Source of the DNA: an uncultured Dehalococcoidia bacterium
Lineage (GTDB): Bacteria > Chloroflexota > Dehalococcoidia > Lucifugimonadales > UBA826
Direction of reading: 5' to 3'
Length of the DNA stretch: 64,000 nucleotides
Assembly: GCA_964500645.1 (NCBI GenBank)
Contig: CAZCOH010000003.1
Span: forward strand, 23,536 to 87,535
Below are positions 1-27,950 of the stretch, piece by piece (the stretch's first letter is position 1; each line of letters starts with the position of its first letter). A program made the position numbers and the translations under genes. A model generated the notes under the pieces. The model saw only the letters and a list, made by a program, of their open reading frames with translations. It did not search any database and was not told the DNA's origin.

Positions 1-756
1 AGCCCTTACGGGTTTTTAGGGGCTCCTATACTTTATGCAATGGCTGCTAGAAGGTATATGCACCAGTATGGTGAAGATTACGCAAGACAGGGAATGGCTG
101 AAGTTGCTGTCGCTACTAGAAAGTGGGCACAGTTAAATCCAAAAGCATATATGAAGGATGATATGTCATTTGATGACTATCACAATTCAAGATGGATTTC
201 AGAACCATTCCATCTGTTTGACTGTTGCCTAGTGACTGACGCTGGAGGTGCGTTTGTTATCACTTCTGCAGAACGTGCAAAGGATACAAAGAAGAAACCA
301 GTTTGGGTACTAGGTGCGGCAGAGTCTCATGATCACAATCTGATTAGCCAGATGCCTGACCTAACTCGAACAGCGGCAAAGAATAGTGGTCCCGCTGCTA
401 TGCAAAGAGCGGGTGTGACTCACGATGATATCGACCTTGCGATGATATACGACTCTTTTACATATACGGTACTAACAACTCTAGAGAGTTTAGGGTTCTG
501 TGGACCAGGAGAAGCACCAGACTTCGTTGCTAATCAGAGGACAGCTCCAGGTGGAGACTTCGCCATGAATACCTCTGGCGGAGGTTTATCTTACACACAC
601 TCTGGTATGTACGGCATGTTCTTAGTACTGGAGGCAGTAAGGCAGTTAAGAGGAGAATGCGGAGACCGTCAATTAGACGATCCTCAGCTCTGCTTAATCA
701 ATGGTACAGGAGGGCAACTCTCCTCCACCGGAACCACGGTTCTGGCGGTCGACTAA
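1..756 (+). CDS. Thiolase-fold protein (SCP2-thiolase/Ltp2-like), 5'-truncated by the window edge
   Basis: Frame is open from base 1. Contains YDSFT, NTSGGGLSYTH and EAVRQLRG. The C-terminal thiolase Cys is absent (INGTGG). Confidence 0.85.
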   Translation, partial: SPYGFLGAPILYAMAARRYMHQYGEDYARQGMAEVAVATRKWAQLNPKAYMKDDMSFDDYHNSRWISEPFHLFDCCLVTDAGGAFVITSAERAKDTKKKPVWVLGAAESHDHNLISQMPDLTRTAAKNSGPAAMQRAGVTHDDIDLAMIYDSFTYTVLTTLESLGFCGPGEAPDFVANQRTAPGGDFAMNTSGGGLSYTHSGMYGMFLVLEAVRQLRGECGDRQLDDPQLCLINGTGGQLSSTGTTVLAVD

Positions 757-775
757 TTATAAGGAGAATCTAAAA

Positions 776-1195
776 ATGGCATATAACAAACCAATACCTG
801 TTCCACAGGGAGAATCTGACGTTTATTGGCAAAAAGCCAAAGAAAAAGAATTGTGGTTGAGATACTGCAATGGTTGTGAAGAGGCGTATTTTTACCCCAC
901 CGACTTTTGTCGCAATCCAGAATGTGCTACTCCACGAGACACTAAATGGGTAAAGGCTTCAGGAAAAGCTACATTGTTCACATACGGTATTGTTCAGAGG
1001 GCTCCACATCCGGGGTTTGCAGATGACGTTCCATTTGTTACTGCGATCGTGGAATTAGAAGAGGGTCCAAAGATGGCTACAAATGTGGTCATTGAAAATC
1101 CGACATTTGATAACTTGAAGATAGGGATGGCTTTGGAAGTTGTGTTCGAGGACATAACTGATGAATTAGCGCTTCCTAAATTTAAGCCTGCATAG
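776..1195 (+). CDS. DUF35-type Zn-ribbon/OB-fold protein, partner of the thiolase-fold enzyme
   Basis: AAGGAG at 761-766 and ATG at 776. CxxC..C..C ribbon (CNGC...CRNPEC); OB-fold motifs PFVTAIVELEEGP and LKIGMALEV. Confidence 0.85.
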   Translation: MAYNKPIPVPQGESDVYWQKAKEKELWLRYCNGCEEAYFYPTDFCRNPECATPRDTKWVKASGKATLFTYGIVQRAPHPGFADDVPFVTAIVELEEGPKMATNVVIENPTFDNLKIGMALEVVFEDITDELALPKFKPA

Positions 1196-1217
1196 GTCAA
1201 AAAGATTTTGTGAATTT

Positions 1218-1250
1218 GAGAAGGCTGTCATCAGGCGGCCTTCTCTTTTA
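1218..1250 (+). terminator. Intrinsic terminator
   Basis: 12-bp stem GAGAAGGCTGTC/GGCGGCCTTCTC (with G-U pairs), 4-nt loop and a T-run, lying between convergent genes. Confidence 0.7.
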
Positions 1251-1271
1251 TGTATAAGGAGCGGGCCTTAG

Positions 1272-1601
1272 TTATTGCTCTTCTCTCTGTGATAAGCAGC
1301 TAGGGCATGGGCACATACCCCTAAGAACGTTAAATGGGAATATACCTGTAAAGTGGGCGTCACTCCACAGAAATTGAATGGCATAGTTTCCTATCATTAG
1401 ATGGTCTTCTGCCTTTAGATCTGATGGTACGCTTGCAGGATCTAGAATTTGGCGCTTGCTCCATTCTTCAACGCACTCAGCGCATTGGCAGCTAATCCTA
1501 ATAGATTTGGCTCCGTAAGTGCTTTCATGAGAGTCAGACCATCTGATTAATATCTTTTCTCCGTATAAACCTACTTTTTCAATTTTCAGTGCCTCGTCCA
1601 A
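1272..1601 (-). CDS. DUF971 / GBBH-like N-terminal domain protein
   Basis: WSDSH, CQCAEC, IGNYAIQFLWSDAH.TGIF pattern; TTG start with AGGAG upstream. Confidence 0.8.
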   Translation of the reverse strand: MDEALKIEKVGLYGEKILIRWSDSHESTYGAKSIRISCQCAECVEEWSKRQILDPASVPSDLKAEDHLMIGNYAIQFLWSDAHFTGIFPFNVLRGMCPCPSCLSQREEQ

Positions 1602-1658
1602 TTGAGTTCTCCTGATTTTATTATTGTTACAAAAATAAAAAGATATAAACTTTTTAGT

Positions 1659-2171
1659 TCAGTTGGGTGTCTCCACGTAACCTATATACGGTAGATTACG
1701 GTATTTTTGGTCTATATCCAATCCGTAACCCACAACGAAGTGATCTTCTATTTCAAATCCCACATACTCTATTTCTAATGTAGTTTTTCTATTCAGCGGT
1801 TTGTTAAGCAGAGTACATATTTTTACTGACTTTGGACCTAATTCGAATAATTTTTCACATATGTATTCCATAGTTTTACCCGTATCAATTATGTCCTCTA
1901 CAACTACTATATCTCTGCCCATAACGTCCTCTAGATCCATGCCATGAAGTTCGATGTTCTGGCTTTGTGTACCGGAGTAGCTGGACACACTTATAAAGCC
2001 AATTCTTACTTCACCAGCTATAGAGCGTAATAGGTCAGCGGCAAAACATATTGATCCCTTTAAAATAGCAACTAATGTTAATGAGGATCCTGTTTTATCA
2101 AGTATCTCTTCGCCTATTTCTGTTACACGTCTTGAAATCTCTTCTGAGGTTATTAGTGGCTTTATAATCAT
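1659..2171 (-). CDS. hpt: Hypoxanthine phosphoribosyltransferase
   Basis: ILKGS, the VVEDIIDTGKT PRPP-binding loop and FVVGYGLD. ATG at 2171 is preferred over the ORF-track TTG at 2189. Confidence 0.92.
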   Translation of the reverse strand: MIIKPLITSEEISRRVTEIGEEILDKTGSSLTLVAILKGSICFAADLLRSIAGEVRIGFISVSSYSGTQSQNIELHGMDLEDVMGRDIVVVEDIIDTGKTMEYICEKLFELGPKSVKICTLLNKPLNRKTTLEIEYVGFEIEDHFVVGYGLDIDQKYRNLPYIGYVETPN

Positions 2172-2459
2172 CAATAATGTTGTTCTCAAATGTTTTTTTC
2201 ATTATGAATCACAATCGAGGATAGAGTATAAATCATCGTAGACGGTTTGACGCATATCTTGAAGAAGGGTACTAGTCACAAGTGGTTTTCAGCGTATGTG
2301 AATGTAAGTTGGCTTTGACATCTAGAATATTGAAGTCAACAGAAAAATTGCAGGGGCATTAATAAATCAAATTATTGATCACATAGAACATTCAAGGTCC
2401 GATGTAAAAGTGACGCTAATAGAGAATGAGATCCTAAGAGGATTCTAAAGGCCAATATT

Positions 2460-4739
2460 TTGGATGTAGAAAGATTTATCGCCGAGATAGTTAATTCCGA
2501 CTGGTATTCGGATCAACTCGTGCATTGGGAAAAAATACCTGGTCGTAGATTTATACCAGGAAAATTAAAGGCCAATCTTTCGCAGTCTATGTGGAATGTT
2601 CTAGAAACCAAGAATATAGAACGTCTGTATTGCCACCAAGCAGAGTCCATTGATCTGGCTCTTTTAGGTAGGCACATCATAATAACTACGTCCACAGCAA
2701 GCGGAAAAAGTCTTTGTTATAACATCCCGGTTTATGAAACCTTGTCGAGGGATAAATTTTCAAGAGCTCTTTATGTTTTCCCAACCAAGGCTCTTGCTCA
2801 AGATCAATACAAAGAGCTCGACTCATTTCATAATTTCTTCGAAAATGTTAGCCATGGCCTATTTGATGGCGATACTCCGTCCGTAGAAAGATCTTATTTA
2901 AGAAGGAATTCACGTTTGCTGGTGACTAACCCAGACATGCTGCATCTTGGGGTATTACCACATCCTAATTTATGGGCTACTTTCTTAAGAGGTTTAAAGT
3001 ATGTTGTTATTGATGAAGCACATATATATAGAGGCGTTTTTGGCTCCCACGTTGCAAACGTTATACGACGCTTAAGGAGATTATGTTCAAAATTTGGAGC
3101 TTCCCCTAAATTCATATTGAGTTCGGCAACAATCGCTAACCCTAAGGATTTGGCATTCAATTTGACCGGTCTTGATGTAGATCTTGTTGATATAGACGGG
3201 TCTCCATCTGCTTCAAAACACTTTATATTTTGGAATCCTCCATTTGACAATCAATCTTTTGGTACGCGTAAAAATACGAATGCTGAATCTGCTAAGCTCA
3301 TGTCAGAATTGATAAAAAGAGAGATAAGAACGATTAATTTCGTTCGTGGAAGAAACCAATCTGAAATCCTATCTCTGTATGCCAGAAATTATCTTTTGGA
3401 TAAAAACAAATGCACGGCCACGAAAATAGCTTCTTATCATGGGAATTATTTGGCTGCTGATAGGAGAGACATAGAGAAACAATTGTTTGAAGGAAAATTG
3501 TTGGGGCTTGTTAGTACTAATGCGATGGAGTTAGGTGTTGATATTGGTAACCTTGAAGCGACGATACTTACAGGGTTTCCTGGATCTGTCTCTAGTTCTT
3601 GGCAACAGTCTGGCCGGAGTGGCCGAGGGGAAGAAGAATCTCTAAGTCTATTGGTAGCTTCTAATGATCCCATAGATCAGTACATTATGGACAATCCTTC
3701 ATCTTTTTTTGAAAAATCTGTCGAATATTCTTTACTCTCTCCTGCCAATTTGCATATTCAGAAGCCTCATTTGAAATGTTCTGCTTATGAAATGCCGATT
3801 TCTATGGGAGACACTAAATTTTTTGGTCCTGAAATGCTTTGGAGTACCGACGAATTGGCTGAATCAGGTTCTCTTAAAGTAAAATCCTCGCAATGGTATC
3901 TTTCCGCTGACATTTCGTACCCAGCCGGAGATGTAGATATTAGAGGCGTAGGATCGTCAACGTACACTTTGGTAAACAAAGTAACTGGAGCGATACTTGA
4001 AACTGTTGATGAAACAACTGTTTATAAGAATCTTTACCCAGGAGCATTACATCTTCATCAAGGGGAATCCTTTTTAATCACTGAAATAGATTTTCCCGCA
4101 AATACTATTTACTGCACTAAGTCAGATGTGTCTTATTACACAGACTCTAAGAGCCTAACGGAAATAAAAATAGTTAACACGATTGGCAATCGGCATGTGG
4201 GAAATTCTATTGTCCATTATGGAGTTGCAAATATATCTACCGATGTGGTTAGTTTCAAAAGGATTCATAAATATTCGAATCAAGTTATCAGTGAAGAAAA
4301 ACTTACTCTTCCTAATTTAAGTTTTGATACCATGGCAGTCTGGGTCGATGTTTCCGTAGAAATTCTAGAACGTATTGAATCTTATGGGTTCAATCAGTTT
4401 GGAGGTTTGCATGGGGCTGAGCACTTAATAATGTCTCTTATTCCTATGTTTGCTATGTGTCATAGAGATGATATTGGAGGAGTTTCTAGTTTGTTGCATC
4501 CTGATACAGGAACACCGCAAATTTTTGTTTTTGATAACTACCCAGGAGGTGTCGGGATATCAGAATTGGGTTATGGAATAATGGAGGATCTGTGGGATAT
4601 GTCTTTAAATGTGATCAAACGTTGCCTATGTGAAAGCGGTTGTCCTGCTTGCATACAGTTTCCGGGGTGCGGTAGAAATAATGAACCTTTGGATAAAAAG
4701 TCAGCAAAATTAATACTTGAAGAAATATTATTGGTCTAA
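2460..4739 (+). CDS. DEAD/DEAH-box helicase with C-terminal DUF1998 (MrfA/Hrq1-like)
   Basis: TASGKS Walker A, DEAH, SATIAN, QQSGRSGR, and the C-terminal CxCxxGCPAC...C Zn motif. Confidence 0.9.
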   Translation: MDVERFIAEIVNSDWYSDQLVHWEKIPGRRFIPGKLKANLSQSMWNVLETKNIERLYCHQAESIDLALLGRHIIITTSTASGKSLCYNIPVYETLSRDKFSRALYVFPTKALAQDQYKELDSFHNFFENVSHGLFDGDTPSVERSYLRRNSRLLVTNPDMLHLGVLPHPNLWATFLRGLKYVVIDEAHIYRGVFGSHVANVIRRLRRLCSKFGASPKFILSSATIANPKDLAFNLTGLDVDLVDIDGSPSASKHFIFWNPPFDNQSFGTRKNTNAESAKLMSELIKREIRTINFVRGRNQSEILSLYARNYLLDKNKCTATKIASYHGNYLAADRRDIEKQLFEGKLLGLVSTNAMELGVDIGNLEATILTGFPGSVSSSWQQSGRSGRGEEESLSLLVASNDPIDQYIMDNPSSFFEKSVEYSLLSPANLHIQKPHLKCSAYEMPISMGDTKFFGPEMLWSTDELAESGSLKVKSSQWYLSADISYPAGDVDIRGVGSSTYTLVNKVTGAILETVDETTVYKNLYPGALHLHQGESFLITEIDFPANTIYCTKSDVSYYTDSKSLTEIKIVNTIGNRHVGNSIVHYGVANISTDVVSFKRIHKYSNQVISEEKLTLPNLSFDTMAVWVDVSVEILERIESYGFNQFGGLHGAEHLIMSLIPMFAMCHRDDIGGVSSLLHPDTGTPQIFVFDNYPGGVGISELGYGIMEDLWDMSLNVIKRCLCESGCPACIQFPGCGRNNEPLDKKSAKLILEEILLV

Positions 4740-4743
4740 AAAG

Positions 4744-6036
4744 ATGCCTAAAAGAAAACTCGGAATTGAAATAAAGAGGTCTGGGCGACTGGACAATGAA
4801 AATGACGTGGTGATTCCTGTAGCTTCAGATCTGCTCAAGGTGGAGGGAATTCCAACACGTGACCCGGAAGTTTCATATTACAGTCGTGAATTTCCTTTGG
4901 AAAGTTTTGCTGTTACAGAGAGTGCCTCTGCAATTTGGGCTGAGCAAGAAAGGAATAAGGTTTCTCCGGAAACTTCAAAGTTATATAAGGCATATCAAGA
5001 GGAAATTATGCCTTGGGTTCAAAAGATAAGAGATTCTTCAGCAAAGCTGCCGACATCCCAGAAAGTATCTAGTAACGTAACTGAATTAGTGAGGGATAAA
5101 GCAAGAGAACTGGGGTACGGAGAAGTTGGATTCACTAAGTTTGATAGAAGGTATATTTATTCTAGTAGGAAAGATGAGGTTAAGAGAGATTTACCTAATG
5201 CCATTTGTCTTGCGTATGAACAAGACTTTGTGAGAACTCAGACCATTCCTAGCCTTGATGCGGAAAGAGCACAAGGTGATGCCTATCTAGAGCAAGCAAA
5301 ATTATCATTGGAGCTTTGTGAATTCTTGCTTGCTCTAGGCTATAGGTCCCAAATATCTGGACCTGTGTGGCATTTCGGACCACTGATACCCATGTTTGTA
5401 CAATCAGGACTTGGTCAACTTGGTGTAAATGGTCAACTTTTGTCACCACATTTTGGATCTAGAGCCAGACTTCAGGTAGTAATAACTGATGCCCCTTTAG
5501 AGCATGATGTACCTATAGATTATGGAATTTATAAACTTTGCGAGACCTGCCAAATTTGCTTTATGAGATGCCCTGGAAAGGCGATTCAGGCCCAGAGAGT
5601 CTGGTATAGAGGAGTCGAAAAAAACAAGTTAATTCATAGGCGTTGTAGGCCTGTAATGACCAGGTACTCTGGATGTGGCATCTGTATAAAAGTTTGTCCT
5701 GTTCAGAAGTATGGGATGGTTGAAGTCATGAGTCATTACCTAGAAACGGGAGAAATACTTGGTAAAGGGACAGAAAATTTAGAAGGATATGAGATGCCAG
5801 GGAAAGGCTACTTTCCTCCAGGTAAGGTCCCGGCGTTTGACCGTGAATTTTTTGATATGCCGACAGGTAGTGAAGAGGAAATAGCATTGTCAGATTTTAA
5901 TAATGCGATGGATCGTACCCCTGATCTTACTGACAATGAAAAGGAAGATATATGGAGAGAATTTCAGAATAGACTTATGAAGGATAGGGAAAAGAAAACC
6001 GCGATAATTGATATGGGTATGGACATCGACAGCTGA
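4744..6036 (+). CDS. Reductive dehalogenase-like (RdhA/QueG superfamily) 2x[4Fe-4S] protein with no TAT signal
   Basis: ARELGYGEVG..FDRRYIYS, FLLALGY, GLGQLGVNGQLLSPHFG, PIDYG..LCETCQICFMRCPGKAI and CRPV....GCGICIKVCP. ATG lies 4 nt after the helicase stop. Confidence 0.75.
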   Translation: MPKRKLGIEIKRSGRLDNENDVVIPVASDLLKVEGIPTRDPEVSYYSREFPLESFAVTESASAIWAEQERNKVSPETSKLYKAYQEEIMPWVQKIRDSSAKLPTSQKVSSNVTELVRDKARELGYGEVGFTKFDRRYIYSSRKDEVKRDLPNAICLAYEQDFVRTQTIPSLDAERAQGDAYLEQAKLSLELCEFLLALGYRSQISGPVWHFGPLIPMFVQSGLGQLGVNGQLLSPHFGSRARLQVVITDAPLEHDVPIDYGIYKLCETCQICFMRCPGKAIQAQRVWYRGVEKNKLIHRRCRPVMTRYSGCGICIKVCPVQKYGMVEVMSHYLETGEILGKGTENLEGYEMPGKGYFPPGKVPAFDREFFDMPTGSEEEIALSDFNNAMDRTPDLTDNEKEDIWREFQNRLMKDREKKTAIIDMGMDIDS

Positions 6037-6138
6037 TAAATAAGAGAAAAAAACCTGTTAAGGTGTGGTGACATTAATAGGTGGTTTTCGTGTATGATAC
6101 TGGATATTGGTATTTAGCCTAGTTACAAGGAGTAGAAT

Positions 6139-6405
6139 ATGGCTGGAGAAGGTAAGTTCGAGGTAGAGATAGTTTATTGCGTTCCTTGAGCGCATCACGG
6201 TACGGCGGCCTGGATGGCCGGTGAATTCTTCGCCGAAGGCGGAAAAGATGTTGCCATAAAGATAACACCAGGAACTGGTGGGATTCTGCAAGTGTTTGCT
6301 GATGGTGACAAAATTTATGATAAAGCAGAAGAAGATGGAGCCTTTCCGAACCTCCCACGAGTTAAAGAAATGCGAGCAGCTATAAAGGAAAAACTGGAAG
6401 CTTAA
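6139..6405 (+). CDS. Rdx-family (SelW/SelT/SelH-like) selenoprotein with CxxU; in-frame TGA at 6187-6189
   Basis: AAGGAG at 6127-6132. ATG 6139 reads MAGEGKFEVEIVYCVP-TGA-AHHGTAAW in frame into the track ORF 6214..6405 (PGTGGILQVFADGDKIYDK...FP). Confidence 0.85.
6195..6224 (+). promoter_or_regulatory. Putative bacterial SECIS element
   Basis: TCAC/GTGA lower stem and CGGCC/GGCCG upper stem. The TGGAT apical loop starts 22 nt after the UGA. Confidence 0.55.
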
Positions 6406-6416
6406 ATACCAGTTTT

Positions 6417-6469
6417 ATGAATTAAAAAGGCCCCGAAGGAAACGCTCCTTCGGGGCCTTTTTAATTCAT
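6417..6469. terminator. Strong bidirectional intrinsic terminator
   Basis: Perfect 24-bp inverted repeat ATGAATTAAAAAGGCCCCGAAGGA with a 5-nt loop and A5/T5 tracts on both sides. Confidence 0.9.
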
Positions 6470-6753
6470 TTATAATTTTATATATATGTTATTTCTGAGC
6501 CGCAGTGTTTTCATGTATTCAGATTTATGCTTTTAATCCAATTTGAAAGTGATAAACAGGCATTTATTCTTCTAATCAGGGGAATAATTTTTTCATTCGT
6601 TGGTTGGGATCTTCTTATTGCTTACAAATTGCTGTTATCAATACCACTTATGTTGATTGATACTGCTGATGTAGTACTCTGTTCAATCCACACCTATCAT
6701 TCTTTTGACAGCAATCCTACGTTTGTCAGTTTCTCCATTCCAAGTAGAACATA

Positions 6754-7506
6754 GTGAGTGAGATTCTAATAGATATAGCCGTAGTGTTGTTAGCATTGTT
6801 TTTCGGTGCGCTAGTTCTTTGCTTTGCTGGTTTTGGAATAGCCATCGCGAGCTCCCCGCTTCTACTCCTAACCTTGGATCCCAAAAACACTGTAGTGATA
6901 ATCAATACGGTGTCGTTGGCAGTTTTTTTATTATTGATATTCCAAAACAGGAAAGAAATTGATTATGGAGAGATGCGTTTCCCAATCATATTTGGACTTC
7001 TTGGAGTACCTTTTGGCCTTGTGTTCTTTGAAGGGATAAACAATATTCTGCTTGGTATATCAATAAGCATTTTAATTATTTGTTCTGGAGCATTCATTTA
7101 TTATGCTAAGGACACCAAAATAGAATTGACTAGAACGAAGTTTTATATGATTTCTTTTGTTGTCGGGACATTACTAACCTCGACTGGGATTGGGGGACCA
7201 TTAATGGCTGTAGCTGGTTTGAGCAAAAACTGGACTAAAAACGAGATCAGAGGTTCACTTTCCCTCTACTATATTTTTGTAGAAGGTGCCGCGGTTATTG
7301 GTTATTTGTATACAGGGAGCTTCGAGAGGGAAGTGAGTTTGTTGGTATTGGTAGGTTTGTTTCCTTCAATTTGTGGATTTTTAATAGCTTCATATTTAGC
7401 GAATAAATCTACCGAAGAGGTCTATAAAAAAGCCCTATTGGGTGTGATAATTTTATCAGGGATAGTCGCTTTTTTGACTCAAACAGCATCTTTTTTGAAT
7501 ATTTGA
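6754..7506 (+). CDS. TauE/SafE-family sulfite/sulfonate exporter-like membrane protein
   Basis: About 8 TM helices with the AGFG motif and the repeat-half TGIGGP motif. Confidence 0.8.
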   Translation: MSEILIDIAVVLLALFFGALVLCFAGFGIAIASSPLLLLTLDPKNTVVIINTVSLAVFLLLIFQNRKEIDYGEMRFPIIFGLLGVPFGLVFFEGINNILLGISISILIICSGAFIYYAKDTKIELTRTKFYMISFVVGTLLTSTGIGGPLMAVAGLSKNWTKNEIRGSLSLYYIFVEGAAVIGYLYTGSFEREVSLLVLVGLFPSICGFLIASYLANKSTEEVYKKALLGVIILSGIVAFLTQTASFLNI

Positions 7507-7533
7507 TCTCATTAAAAATGATTTACAGATAAA

Positions 7534-7562
7534 TTGACCCTACAAATAGGCAAACATATAAT
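7534..7562 (+). promoter_or_regulatory. Sigma70-type promoter upstream of thrS
   Basis: TTGACC-17 nt-TATAAT. Confidence 0.6.
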
Positions 7563-7709
7563 TCGCACGATTCTCATCGTCGGTTTTAGGTTTAAGTAAA
7601 ACAAAAACTTGTCGGGGGACTTCACTTTGCTACACTGTTAGCTTCAACATTATTTTTCAGAAGCTATTTTTTTATTTGGATCAACTGCTTTTTGTGTGAG
7701 GCTTGTTAC

Positions 7710-9443
7710 ATGAATGACGAGGAACTTTCAAATTTAAGGTATAGAATCAGGCATTCTGCTGCGCATGTAATGGCTGATGTTGTGACCACGATGTATCCCG
7801 ATGCTAAATTGGCTATTGGTCCCCCAACTGAAGATGGATTCTATTATGATTTTTTAGTTGAAAATCCTTTTTCTGATGAAGACCTTAAAAGAATAGAGCG
7901 ACAGATGAAAAAAATCATCGGTCGTAATCTTTCATTTGAATATTCTGAGTATTCCCGCCAGGAAATTTTAGAAAAAAACAAGCATGAGCCTCTGAAATTA
8001 GAGGTTATTTCAGAAATTCCTGAGGGCGAAACAATCACCACATATAAGCATGGTGATTTTGAGGATCTTTGTGCTGGCCCTCATGTTGATTCAACGGGCC
8101 AAATTCCCGCATTTAAGCTTATTAATGTTGCTGGCGCTTATTGGAGAGGGGATGAAAACAGGCCGATGCTACAGCGAATATATGGTACGGCTTGGGAAAG
8201 TAAAGAGTCTTTAGAAAAACACTTGAACAACCTAGAGGAAGCAAAGAAACGTGATCATAGAACTCTAGGTAAAGAAATGGATTTGTTTTCTGTACATGAA
8301 GAGACTGGACCCGGTTTAATCATATGGCATCCTAAAGGTGCTAGGGTGAGAAACATCTTCGAAAATTTTTGGAGAGAAGAACATTACAAAAGAGGATATG
8401 ACTTAATTTACACGCCTAATATAGGGAGAGCAAATCTTTGGCAGACAAGTGGGCATCTTGATTTTTTTAAAGAGAACATGTTTTCACCATCAGAAACAGA
8501 CGGACAAGATTATTATCTAAAGCCCATGAATTGTCCTTTCCATATAATGTATTACAAATCTTCCCTACGAAGTTATAGAGAACTTCCGATGAGGATAGGA
8601 GAACTTGGGACTGTTTATCGTTATGAAAGAGGTGGCACTCTTCACGGAATGATGAGAGTTAGAGGGTTTACTCAAGATGATGCACATATATTTTGCAGAC
8701 CTGATCAAATTGAACATGAGATTAATAACGTTTTGGACCTCACTTTTTATTTATTGGAGGCTTTTGGCTTTAAGGATTTCACATTAAATCTATCTACACG
8801 CCCAGATAAAGCTGTTGGTTCTGATGATCAATGGGATCTCGCTGAAAATTCTCTTAGAAATACTTTGCTAAGCAGGGGATTGGATTTTGACATAGAAGAA
8901 GCGGGCGGAGCATTCTATGGCCCTAAAATAGACGTCAATATAAAGGACGCACTTGGACGATCTTGGCAATGTACTACGGTACAGTTTGATTTTAATTTAC
9001 CTCAGAGATTTGGGATAACTTATATTGGGGAAGATGGAAATGAACACCAGCCATATATGGTTCATAGAGCTATATTTGGATCTCTGGAAAGATTCATGGG
9101 TGTTTTAATTGAACACTACGGTGGTGCATTTCCGGTGTGGCTGGCTCCACTTCAGGTAAAGGTCATACCAATAGCTGATCGTCACTTTGAGTACGCAAAG
9201 AAAATCGGAAATGAAATGGATGCCTCTGGCCTACGTTGTGAAGTGGACTTAGGTACTGATCGTATGAATTCTAAGATCAGGCAAGGACAACTTCAGAAGA
9301 TCCCTTATATGATCATAGTTGGAGATAAGGAAGTCGATTCCGATACTGTGAGTGTAAGATCTAGGAATGGAGAAGACGTAGGGGTTGTTAGTTTGAAAGA
9401 CTTAGTTAGTCGCATAGTTTCCGAATCAGACAATAAAGAGTAA
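7710..9443 (+). CDS. thrS: Threonyl-tRNA synthetase (short form without the N-terminal TGS domain)
   Basis: RHSAAH editing motif, DLCAGPH, LKPMNCP, YRYE, MRVRGFTQDDAH, FYGPKID. ATG at 7710. Confidence 0.97.
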   Translation: MNDEELSNLRYRIRHSAAHVMADVVTTMYPDAKLAIGPPTEDGFYYDFLVENPFSDEDLKRIERQMKKIIGRNLSFEYSEYSRQEILEKNKHEPLKLEVISEIPEGETITTYKHGDFEDLCAGPHVDSTGQIPAFKLINVAGAYWRGDENRPMLQRIYGTAWESKESLEKHLNNLEEAKKRDHRTLGKEMDLFSVHEETGPGLIIWHPKGARVRNIFENFWREEHYKRGYDLIYTPNIGRANLWQTSGHLDFFKENMFSPSETDGQDYYLKPMNCPFHIMYYKSSLRSYRELPMRIGELGTVYRYERGGTLHGMMRVRGFTQDDAHIFCRPDQIEHEINNVLDLTFYLLEAFGFKDFTLNLSTRPDKAVGSDDQWDLAENSLRNTLLSRGLDFDIEEAGGAFYGPKIDVNIKDALGRSWQCTTVQFDFNLPQRFGITYIGEDGNEHQPYMVHRAIFGSLERFMGVLIEHYGGAFPVWLAPLQVKVIPIADRHFEYAKKIGNEMDASGLRCEVDLGTDRMNSKIRQGQLQKIPYMIIVGDKEVDSDTVSVRSRNGEDVGVVSLKDLVSRIVSESDNKE

Positions 9444-18823: not shown

Positions 18824-18899
18824 CGGGGCGTAGCGCAGTTGGTAGCGCGCCACGTTCGGGACGTGGAGGTCGCTGGTTCGAGTCCAGTCGCCCCGACCA
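18824..18899 (+). tRNA. tRNA-Pro (anticodon CGG), CCA encoded
   Basis: Cloverleaf: CGGGGCG/CGCCCCG acceptor stem, CCACG-TTCGGGA-CGTGG anticodon arm (CGG at 18857-18859), GTTCGAG T-loop, 3' ACCA. Confidence 0.97.
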
Positions 18900-27642: not shown

Positions 27643-27694
27643 CGTGCGCCTGCGTGGAGACTTTTTTAGTTTTCATTAAGGAACTGCATAATGA

Positions 27695-27950
27695 TGCTTT
27701 GAGAGGGAGTAGTAACCGGAGGATACAGTTTACAGAGAAACCAAGGTTTGCTGAGACTTGGTGGTTGGATGAAACGGTGAACTCGCCCAGGAGCACATTT
27801 TCTAAAGCTTTGATATGTCTAGGGAAATGCGGTGGCTACGTTATAGCTAATGAGTGGCCTTTATATGTTACTAAACATGTTCTGGCAACGTGGGTGGTAC
27901 CACGGGATCTCTGTTTCCCGTCCCATATTTTGGGCGGGATTTTTGTTTTT
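27695..27950 (+). ncRNA. T-box riboswitch (transcription attenuation) with Leu specifier CUC
   Basis: Stem I closed by TGCTT/GAGCA, AGTA, AGAGA bulge, GCTGAGA loop, GAA-CTC-G specifier at 27782-27784, T-box GGGTGGTACCACG at 27892-27904, terminator TCCCGTCCCA/TGGGCGGGA plus T-run. Confidence 0.9.

Follow-up and report, generated by a model that had tools for sequence, protein, structure and literature searches.

A probable SelW-like selenoprotein gene in SAR202-type Dehalococcoidia, recorded by gene callers as a short Rdx fragment

Our results suggest that a short gene in a Dehalococcoidia bacterium, which gene callers record as a fragment of 63–70 amino acids, is a genuine selenocysteine-decoded gene for a SelW-like selenoprotein. 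The gene lies at positions 6139–6405 of a 64,000-nucleotide stretch of contig CAZCOH010000003.1, the whole of which we analysed and call the window. We put the probability of this reading at about 92%. The gene would encode a SelW-like (Rdx) thiol/selenol oxidoreductase of 88 residues. The protein would have a thioredoxin-like fold, and its redox centre would be Cys14-x-x-Sec17, with the UGA at codon 17 probably read as selenocysteine (Sec). In the mechanism we propose, SelB with Sec-tRNA(Sec) would bind a hairpin (6203–6223) that lies 21 nt past the UGA, and would supply Sec to the ribosome so that translation does not terminate there. The cellular role of the protein is presumably redox or antioxidant, by analogy with other SelW-like proteins. 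An 88-aa selenoprotein had already been proposed in the initial annotation of this DNA. That proposal is now supported by the match to the Rdx family, the pairing of Cys with TGA among homologues, a selB gene on a near-identical contig and a hairpin that agrees with the published criteria for bacterial SECIS elements (bSECIS).

The gene layout can be read directly from the window (Table 1), and it bears out the initial annotation on several points. A strong Shine-Dalgarno sequence precedes the ATG. The frame that this ATG opens begins with the peptide MAGEGKFEVEIVYCVP (translation of 6139–6420) and has a single internal stop, a TGA that directly follows Cys14-Val15-Pro16 and completes the CxxU motif. 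After the TGA, 71 sense codons follow up to the TAA. The suspected truncation by standard ORF calling is equally evident: the mechanical ORF listing gives only the 63-aa piece, and most database homologues are 63–71 aa long. ORF callers are well known to cut selenoprotein genes short in this way.

Table 1. Features of the Rdx gene and its immediate surroundings in the window
Feature	Position	Strand	Remarks and basis
Shine-Dalgarno AAGGAG	6127–6132	+	ATG 6 nt further on; read from the sequence
Full CDS of the probable selenoprotein, SelW-like/Rdx	6139–6405	+	88 codons including Sec17, then TAA 6403–6405; translation, Pfam, PDB matches
CxxU redox motif Cys14-Val15-Pro16-Sec17 (TGC GTT CCT TGA)	6178–6189	+	Sequence, translation
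Probable Sec-encoding UGA codon (codon 17)	6187–6189	+	TGA in 79/80 genome loci
Candidate bSECIS hairpin	6203–6223	+	Folding, alignment
63-aa ORF from standard gene calling	6214–6405	+	Truncation artefact; ORF listing
Strong intrinsic terminator, 20-pair stem then T run	6420–6466	+	3' of the Rdx gene

The membership of the read-through product in the Rdx family is supported by sequence and by fold. With U written as C, the 88-aa product scores 47.6 bits against Pfam Rdx (PF10262; cut-off 22.6, E=2e-12), and the match spans residues 8–77 of the product and positions 1–70 of the 74 in the profile. The NCBIfam model TIGR02174 (CXXU_selWTH) gives a near miss, with 32.0 bits against a cut-off of 34.2. 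This may be a reason why annotation pipelines leave the Sec codon unrescued. The product is no member of the Campylobacter-type equivalog NF041051 (SelTWH_Campy), where it scores 35.2 against a cut-off of 88. Six solved bacterial Rdx/SelW-related proteins (PDB 2oka, 2ojl, 2obk, 2fa8, 2p0g and 3dex) match at E values of 2e-9 to 6e-7, and U17, encoded by TGA, is aligned with the second Cys of their CxxC. They match the window protein over residues 4–81 and are like it in the b-a-b-b-b-a thioredoxin-like fold (TM 0.6–0.7) and in the position of the motif. They differ in having CxxC (CTQC in 2oka and 2ojl) and about 100–108 residues, whereas the window protein has CVPU and 88 residues; identity is 25–34%.

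The structural evidence comes from an AlphaFold model of a Cys orthologue (P0001) that is 94% identical to the window product. The model is of moderate confidence (pLDDT 70) and has the thioredoxin-like topology b1(7–14)-CVPC-a1(17–37)-b2-b3-b4-a2, with the redox motif at the beta1/alpha1 junction. When the model was compared with the PDB by Foldseek, the best 22 matches were Rdx proteins and mouse SelW (TM 0.5–0.7), ahead of thioredoxins. Mammalian selenoprotein W (PDB 2npb) has the same fold (TM 0.68–0.70) and CxxU at the b1/a1 junction, at only 15% identity. The two genes also differ in where the SECIS is found. In the eukaryotic selenoprotein W gene the SECIS lies in the 3'-UTR and works with SBP2 and eEFSec, whereas the candidate SECIS of the window is in frame and immediately downstream of the UGA, as in bacteria.

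The TGA itself is highly conserved. From a collection with one genome per GTDB species we obtained 80 loci, all from Dehalococcoidia/SAR202/Chloroflexota MAGs, at 59–97% protein identity. Codon 17 is TGA in 79 of these loci and TGC in the remaining one (L027). Such agreement at one codon is, by this count, far beyond chance. The sequence YCVP in front of it is invariant in all 82 unique homologous sequences. The codon for Pro16 just before the UGA (6184–6186 in the window) is CCT in 80 of the 82, with an entropy of 0.17 bits, a bias that may reflect a codon-context constraint on Sec decoding. Three MAGs (SAT215, UBA1123 and B38T1B5) carry two TGA-containing Rdx copies on different contigs (L019/L020, L034/L035 and L031/L085, respectively). 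The copies in UBA1123 and B38T1B5 are diverged paralogues, whereas those in SAT215 are identical over the compared region, so that the second SAT215 copy may be an assembly duplicate.

Protein homologues in the databases are of two kinds. A few are full length, and most of the 120 listed are fragments of 63–71 aa that begin at the Met which also opens the 63-aa piece; the same 63-aa product was called on 23 contigs that we read. At the Sec site the full-length homologues have C (P0001 and P0006), W (P0002, P0003, P0005, P0008 and P0022) or L (P0004). For P0002 the encoding DNA (L008) has TGA at this site, and the recorded protein is not obtained under code 11. Hence, the W in P0002 is an artefact of a gene caller that used code 4.

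The Cys and Leu forms are present in the DNA. P0001 is encoded with TGC by a metagenome locus (L007) in which the gene order helicase, Fe-S-like gene, Rdx is the same as in the window. The TGC at L007:3049–3051 stands against a TGA at L010:10049–10051, on a MAG contig that is 99.4–99.5% identical to L007 over 3.8 kb. The difference may be a Sec/Cys single-base polymorphism within one species; otherwise, it stems from an error in assembly. P0004 comes from a 585-bp metagenome contig with TTA (Leu), one base from TGA, at the Sec position (L092:71–73), which points to an inactive variant or to a sequencing error. The lone TGC among the 80 genome loci, at L027:10049–10051, suggests a recent Sec-to-Cys conversion, given that its nearest relatives all have TGA and that the hairpin sequence is kept. 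L007 keeps the same hairpin sequence as well. Together with the Cys of the solved Rdx proteins, the TGC of L007 and L027 provides the Cys/TGA pairing that an alignment of homologues had been expected to reveal.

A hairpin with a G-containing apical loop 22 nt downstream of the TGA had also been noted in the initial annotation. We find it as CGGCGGCC-UGGAU-GGCCGGUG, with the 5' arm at 6206–6210, the apical loop at 6211–6215 and the 3' arm at 6216–6220. The loop begins 22 nt past the TGA, which equals a spacing of 21 nt. In the window the helix extends by the pairs 6203/6223 and 6204/6222, giving the structure ((.(((((.....))))).)) with −11.6 kcal/mol. The hairpin sits within the coding sequence for Ala-Ala-Trp-Met-Ala, and the ATG chosen by gene callers (6214–6216) falls in its apical loop. 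The bSECIS consensus model describes a loop of 3–9 nt, an upper stem of 4–16 bp, a G in the first two loop positions, a distance of 16–37 nt from the UGA and a minimum free energy of at most −7.5 kcal/mol (PMC13188914). The window hairpin lies within every one of these limits: it has a 5-nt loop, a 5-bp stem, a G at loop position 2 that is followed by another G, and the spacing and energy given above. The energy cut-off is also reached by 59 of 62 homologues.

How much of this structure is conserved? Downstream from the TGA, 62 distinct sequences align without gaps, with hardly any variation in the core GCGGCCUGGAUGGCC. The only stem that RNAalifold predicts is a 4-bp GGCC/GGCC (6207–6210 with 6216–6219) around the loop UGGAU. 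This core stem pairs in all 62 sequences. They contain 28 changes in it, all of them one-sided C-to-U (G-C to G-U), and none breaks a pair; double compensatory changes do not occur among them. Extended lower stems, in two registers, are not consistently kept (the pairs 17/37 and 18/36 are kept in part), and a 13-pair extended structure reaches 70.8% pairing, no better than shuffles. We claim only the core hairpin. Single-sequence folding of the hairpin region is no better than shuffles (z = −0.34). At its gathering thresholds, Rfam detects neither a SECIS nor a tRNA-Sec family, whether in the window or in four loci that bear SelB.

The strongest evidence that supports a constraint at the RNA level is the suppression of synonymous sites. 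At the four-fold Ala codons 23, 24 and 27 the third-position entropy is 0, 0 and 0.14 bits. Most of the remaining four-fold codons have 1.2–1.9 bits, and the codon of Pro16 is the main exception among them. In codon 28 the third base stays C whether N, S, T or G is encoded. Part of the hairpin conservation could come from the Ala-Ala-Trp-Met-Ala peptide: the Trp-Met dipeptide fixes six bases, UGGAUG, which are four loop bases and the first two of the 3' arm.

A selenoprotein gene implies that the lineage has Sec machinery, and this implication of the initial annotation holds for SelB. We used SelA, SelB and SelD of E. coli MG1655 as tblastn queries against the window and all related loci. SelB has matches with E values of 1e-57 to 1e-77 in nine SAR202 loci, 5–7 kb upstream of the Rdx gene, and these cover query residues 1–607 of 614 in eight loci and residues 1–359 in L045. 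A database search with SAR202 SelB returns many Dehalococcoidia/SAR202 proteins named “selenocysteine-specific translation elongation factor”. One SAR202 SelB (P0182, 620 aa) scores 341.6 bits on TIGR00475 (cut-off 242.25) and carries the winged-helix domains PF09106 and PF09107. It is encoded on the same 26,684-bp contig as an Rdx gene (L001) identical to that of the window, and this contig is 99.3–99.5% identical to positions 1–8661 of the window. The selB gene at L091:10001–11863 corresponds to about −6733 to −4871 relative to window base 1. By collinearity, selB would therefore be located about 11 kb upstream of the Rdx gene, just off the left edge of the window. A lack of SelB had been named as grounds for giving up the selenoprotein; what we found is a SelB at this distance from an identical gene on a near-identical contig.

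For tRNA-Sec, SelA and SelD the implication did not find support in the sequence available. Neither selA nor selC was seen beside selB at the SelB loci. ARAGORN gave no tRNA-Sec in the window and 1.59 Mb of related loci, and tblastn gave no match to SelA or SelD in the window and about 1.6 Mb of related loci, which are small slices of each genome. In the window ARAGORN finds only a tRNA-Pro (18824–18899), and Rfam finds only that tRNA and a T-box. By Pfam, the window ORFs of SelA/SelD size are unrelated enzymes (aconitase, amidase, amine oxidase, KARI and similar).

One could argue that an Rdx gene with CxxC has simply acquired the TGA by a nonsense mutation, because standard ORF calling stops there and Cys forms exist. 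We consider such a pseudogene extremely improbable. TGA occupies the same codon in nearly every species of the collection, both flanks are under purifying selection, and none of the 80 genome loci has further stops or frameshifts in the Rdx gene. Since the nearest relatives of both Cys forms (L007 and L027) all have TGA, Cys is the derived state. The spread of protein identities (59–97%) also excludes a single clonal contaminant as the source of the TGA forms. Alternatively, the true product could start at ATG 6214 and have 63 aa, with the upstream 16 codons serving as an untranslated leader or as a separate micropeptide. Every pipeline annotates the gene in this way, for example as an “Rdx family protein” of about 70 aa. 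However, ATG 6214 has no Shine-Dalgarno sequence comparable to the AAGGAG of ATG 6139, and the upstream peptide MAGEGK..EI.YCVP is conserved. At codons 2, 3, 5, 9, 11 and 15 the amino acid is kept while the third positions vary by 1.2–1.75 bits among the 82 unique sequences. Hence, this frame is translated over the 16 N-terminal codons, and purifying selection acts on them. Taken together with the conservation of the TGA across loci, we see this as excluding both the nonsense mutation and the 63-aa ORF as the real product. Strand b1 and half of the redox centre also come from the 16 residues before the TGA, so that a 63-aa fragment would be without the CxxU active site and could not be a functional Rdx protein. 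The short product is therefore very unlikely.

The remaining alternatives accept translation across the TGA and differ in the amino acid that is inserted. If TGA were a sense codon in this organism (Trp or Gly, genetic code 4 or 25), the W recorded at the site in five homologues would be explained. As described above, the DNA of P0002 has TGA and its W was introduced by the gene caller. In the window, TGA ends 12 of the 44 long ORFs, including both neighbouring genes (4717–6036 and 6754–7506). TGA is thus a normal terminator that has not been generally recoded. With a dedicated SelB also present, we give a sense-codon TGA practically no chance. A scan of the window gave no second TGA-interrupted selenoprotein candidate. 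It is also conceivable that, at least when selenium is limiting, a near-cognate or mis-charged tRNA inserts Cys or Trp at the UGA in place of Sec. Seawater contains little selenium, and single-base Cys variants coexist with TGA forms. Nevertheless, the conserved SECIS-like hairpin and the linked SelB favour a dedicated pathway, and insertion of Cys or Trp seems very unlikely to us. Hence, we prefer to read the UGA as a Sec codon.

A selenoprotein of this type fits what is known from the ocean. Among the prokaryotic selenoproteins of marine metagenomes, the SelW-like CxxU family ranks first in abundance (PMC2398784; PMC9402790). The GOS data contain 427 Sec forms and 56 Cys forms of this family (PMC2398784), and in a later reanalysis the SelW-like family was still the top family with 11.3% of selenoprotein genes (PMC9402790). 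The window protein is like the SelW-like selenoproteins reported from the Sargasso Sea, GOS and sequenced bacteria (PMC2398784; PMC1794560; PMC9402790) in its Pfam family, in CxxU with Sec as the second redox residue, in size class and marine origin, and in a bSECIS (a candidate in the window) within the coding region just after the UGA. The excess of Sec forms follows the same pattern, with 427 versus 56 in GOS and 79 versus 1 at the window-type loci. In contrast, the sequences in those surveys were not assigned to SAR202/Dehalococcoidia, and the candidate SECIS of the window clade has the nearly invariant core GCGGCCUGGAUGGCC.

The proposed decoding also resembles that of E. coli fdhF. In both cases a hairpin with a G-containing apical loop is found shortly past the UGA inside the ORF, and there is a dedicated SelB with C-terminal winged-helix domains. 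The upper stem in the window is short (4–5 bp) and its loop is UGGAU. We liken the two systems by their layout, and the SelB of SAR202 would bind the window-type hairpin.

In the literature that we searched we found no paper linking SAR202 with selenocysteine or selenoproteins. Assigning the SelW-like family to SAR202 and describing its SECIS hence appears to be undocumented so far. For the Rdx gene itself, our result is mainly an annotation correction and involves no new mechanism or family. The correction matters because public SAR202/Dehalococcoidia MAGs record the gene as a 63–71 aa “Rdx family protein” or with a spurious Trp; either way, the probable selenocysteine of the active site goes unseen. 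At the level of sequence, the analysis establishes SelB as evidence of the Sec-decoding trait in the abundant deep-ocean SAR202 clade, along with at least one predicted selenoprotein that is nearly universal there. Sec use by SAR202 would bear on estimates of the selenium demand of oceanic microbes, and the Rdx hairpin could provide a clean SECIS example for training selenoprotein finders.

A more speculative extension, which we hold to be rather doubtful, is that Sec is near-fixed in Rdx across SAR202/Dehalococcoidia through an unusually rigid minimal SECIS in the coding sequence for Ala-Ala-Trp-Met-Ala, and that single-base TGC (Cys) and TTA (Leu) variants segregate in natural populations. 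Provided that these variants are real and not assembly errors, they would offer a natural gauge of how far selenium is limiting in the dark ocean, and SAR202 would make a large and so far unrecognised contribution to the marine selenoproteome.

The window is a stretch of chromosome with 40% GC from an aerobic Dehalococcoidia bacterium of the SAR202 type. It carries genes for cytochrome oxidase, ThrRS and IF3 as well as an ilv/leu cluster under T-box control. Directly upstream of Rdx lies a gene (4717–6036, +) for a protein of 439 aa, in which Fer4_16 gives a weak 4Fe-4S dicluster signature (28.9 bits, under the cut-off of 30). We considered this Fe-S-like gene as a functional partner and rejected it: it adjoins the Rdx gene in only 21 of the 80 loci, which is clade-level synteny and not a conserved operon. 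Downstream, a 75-aa ORF (6527–6754, +) abuts the start of a gene for a TauE/SafE-family membrane protein (6754–7506, +). The ORF has no family match and no tblastn match in the 80 genome loci; it is called as a gene in five of six near-identical metagenome contigs. Further along the window, a T-box leader (27690–27928, +; 109 bits) precedes a TPP-enzyme gene of the acetolactate-synthase type, which is followed by genes for ketol-acid reductoisomerase and then an aconitase-family protein. Together these look like a T-box-controlled cluster for branched-chain amino acids.
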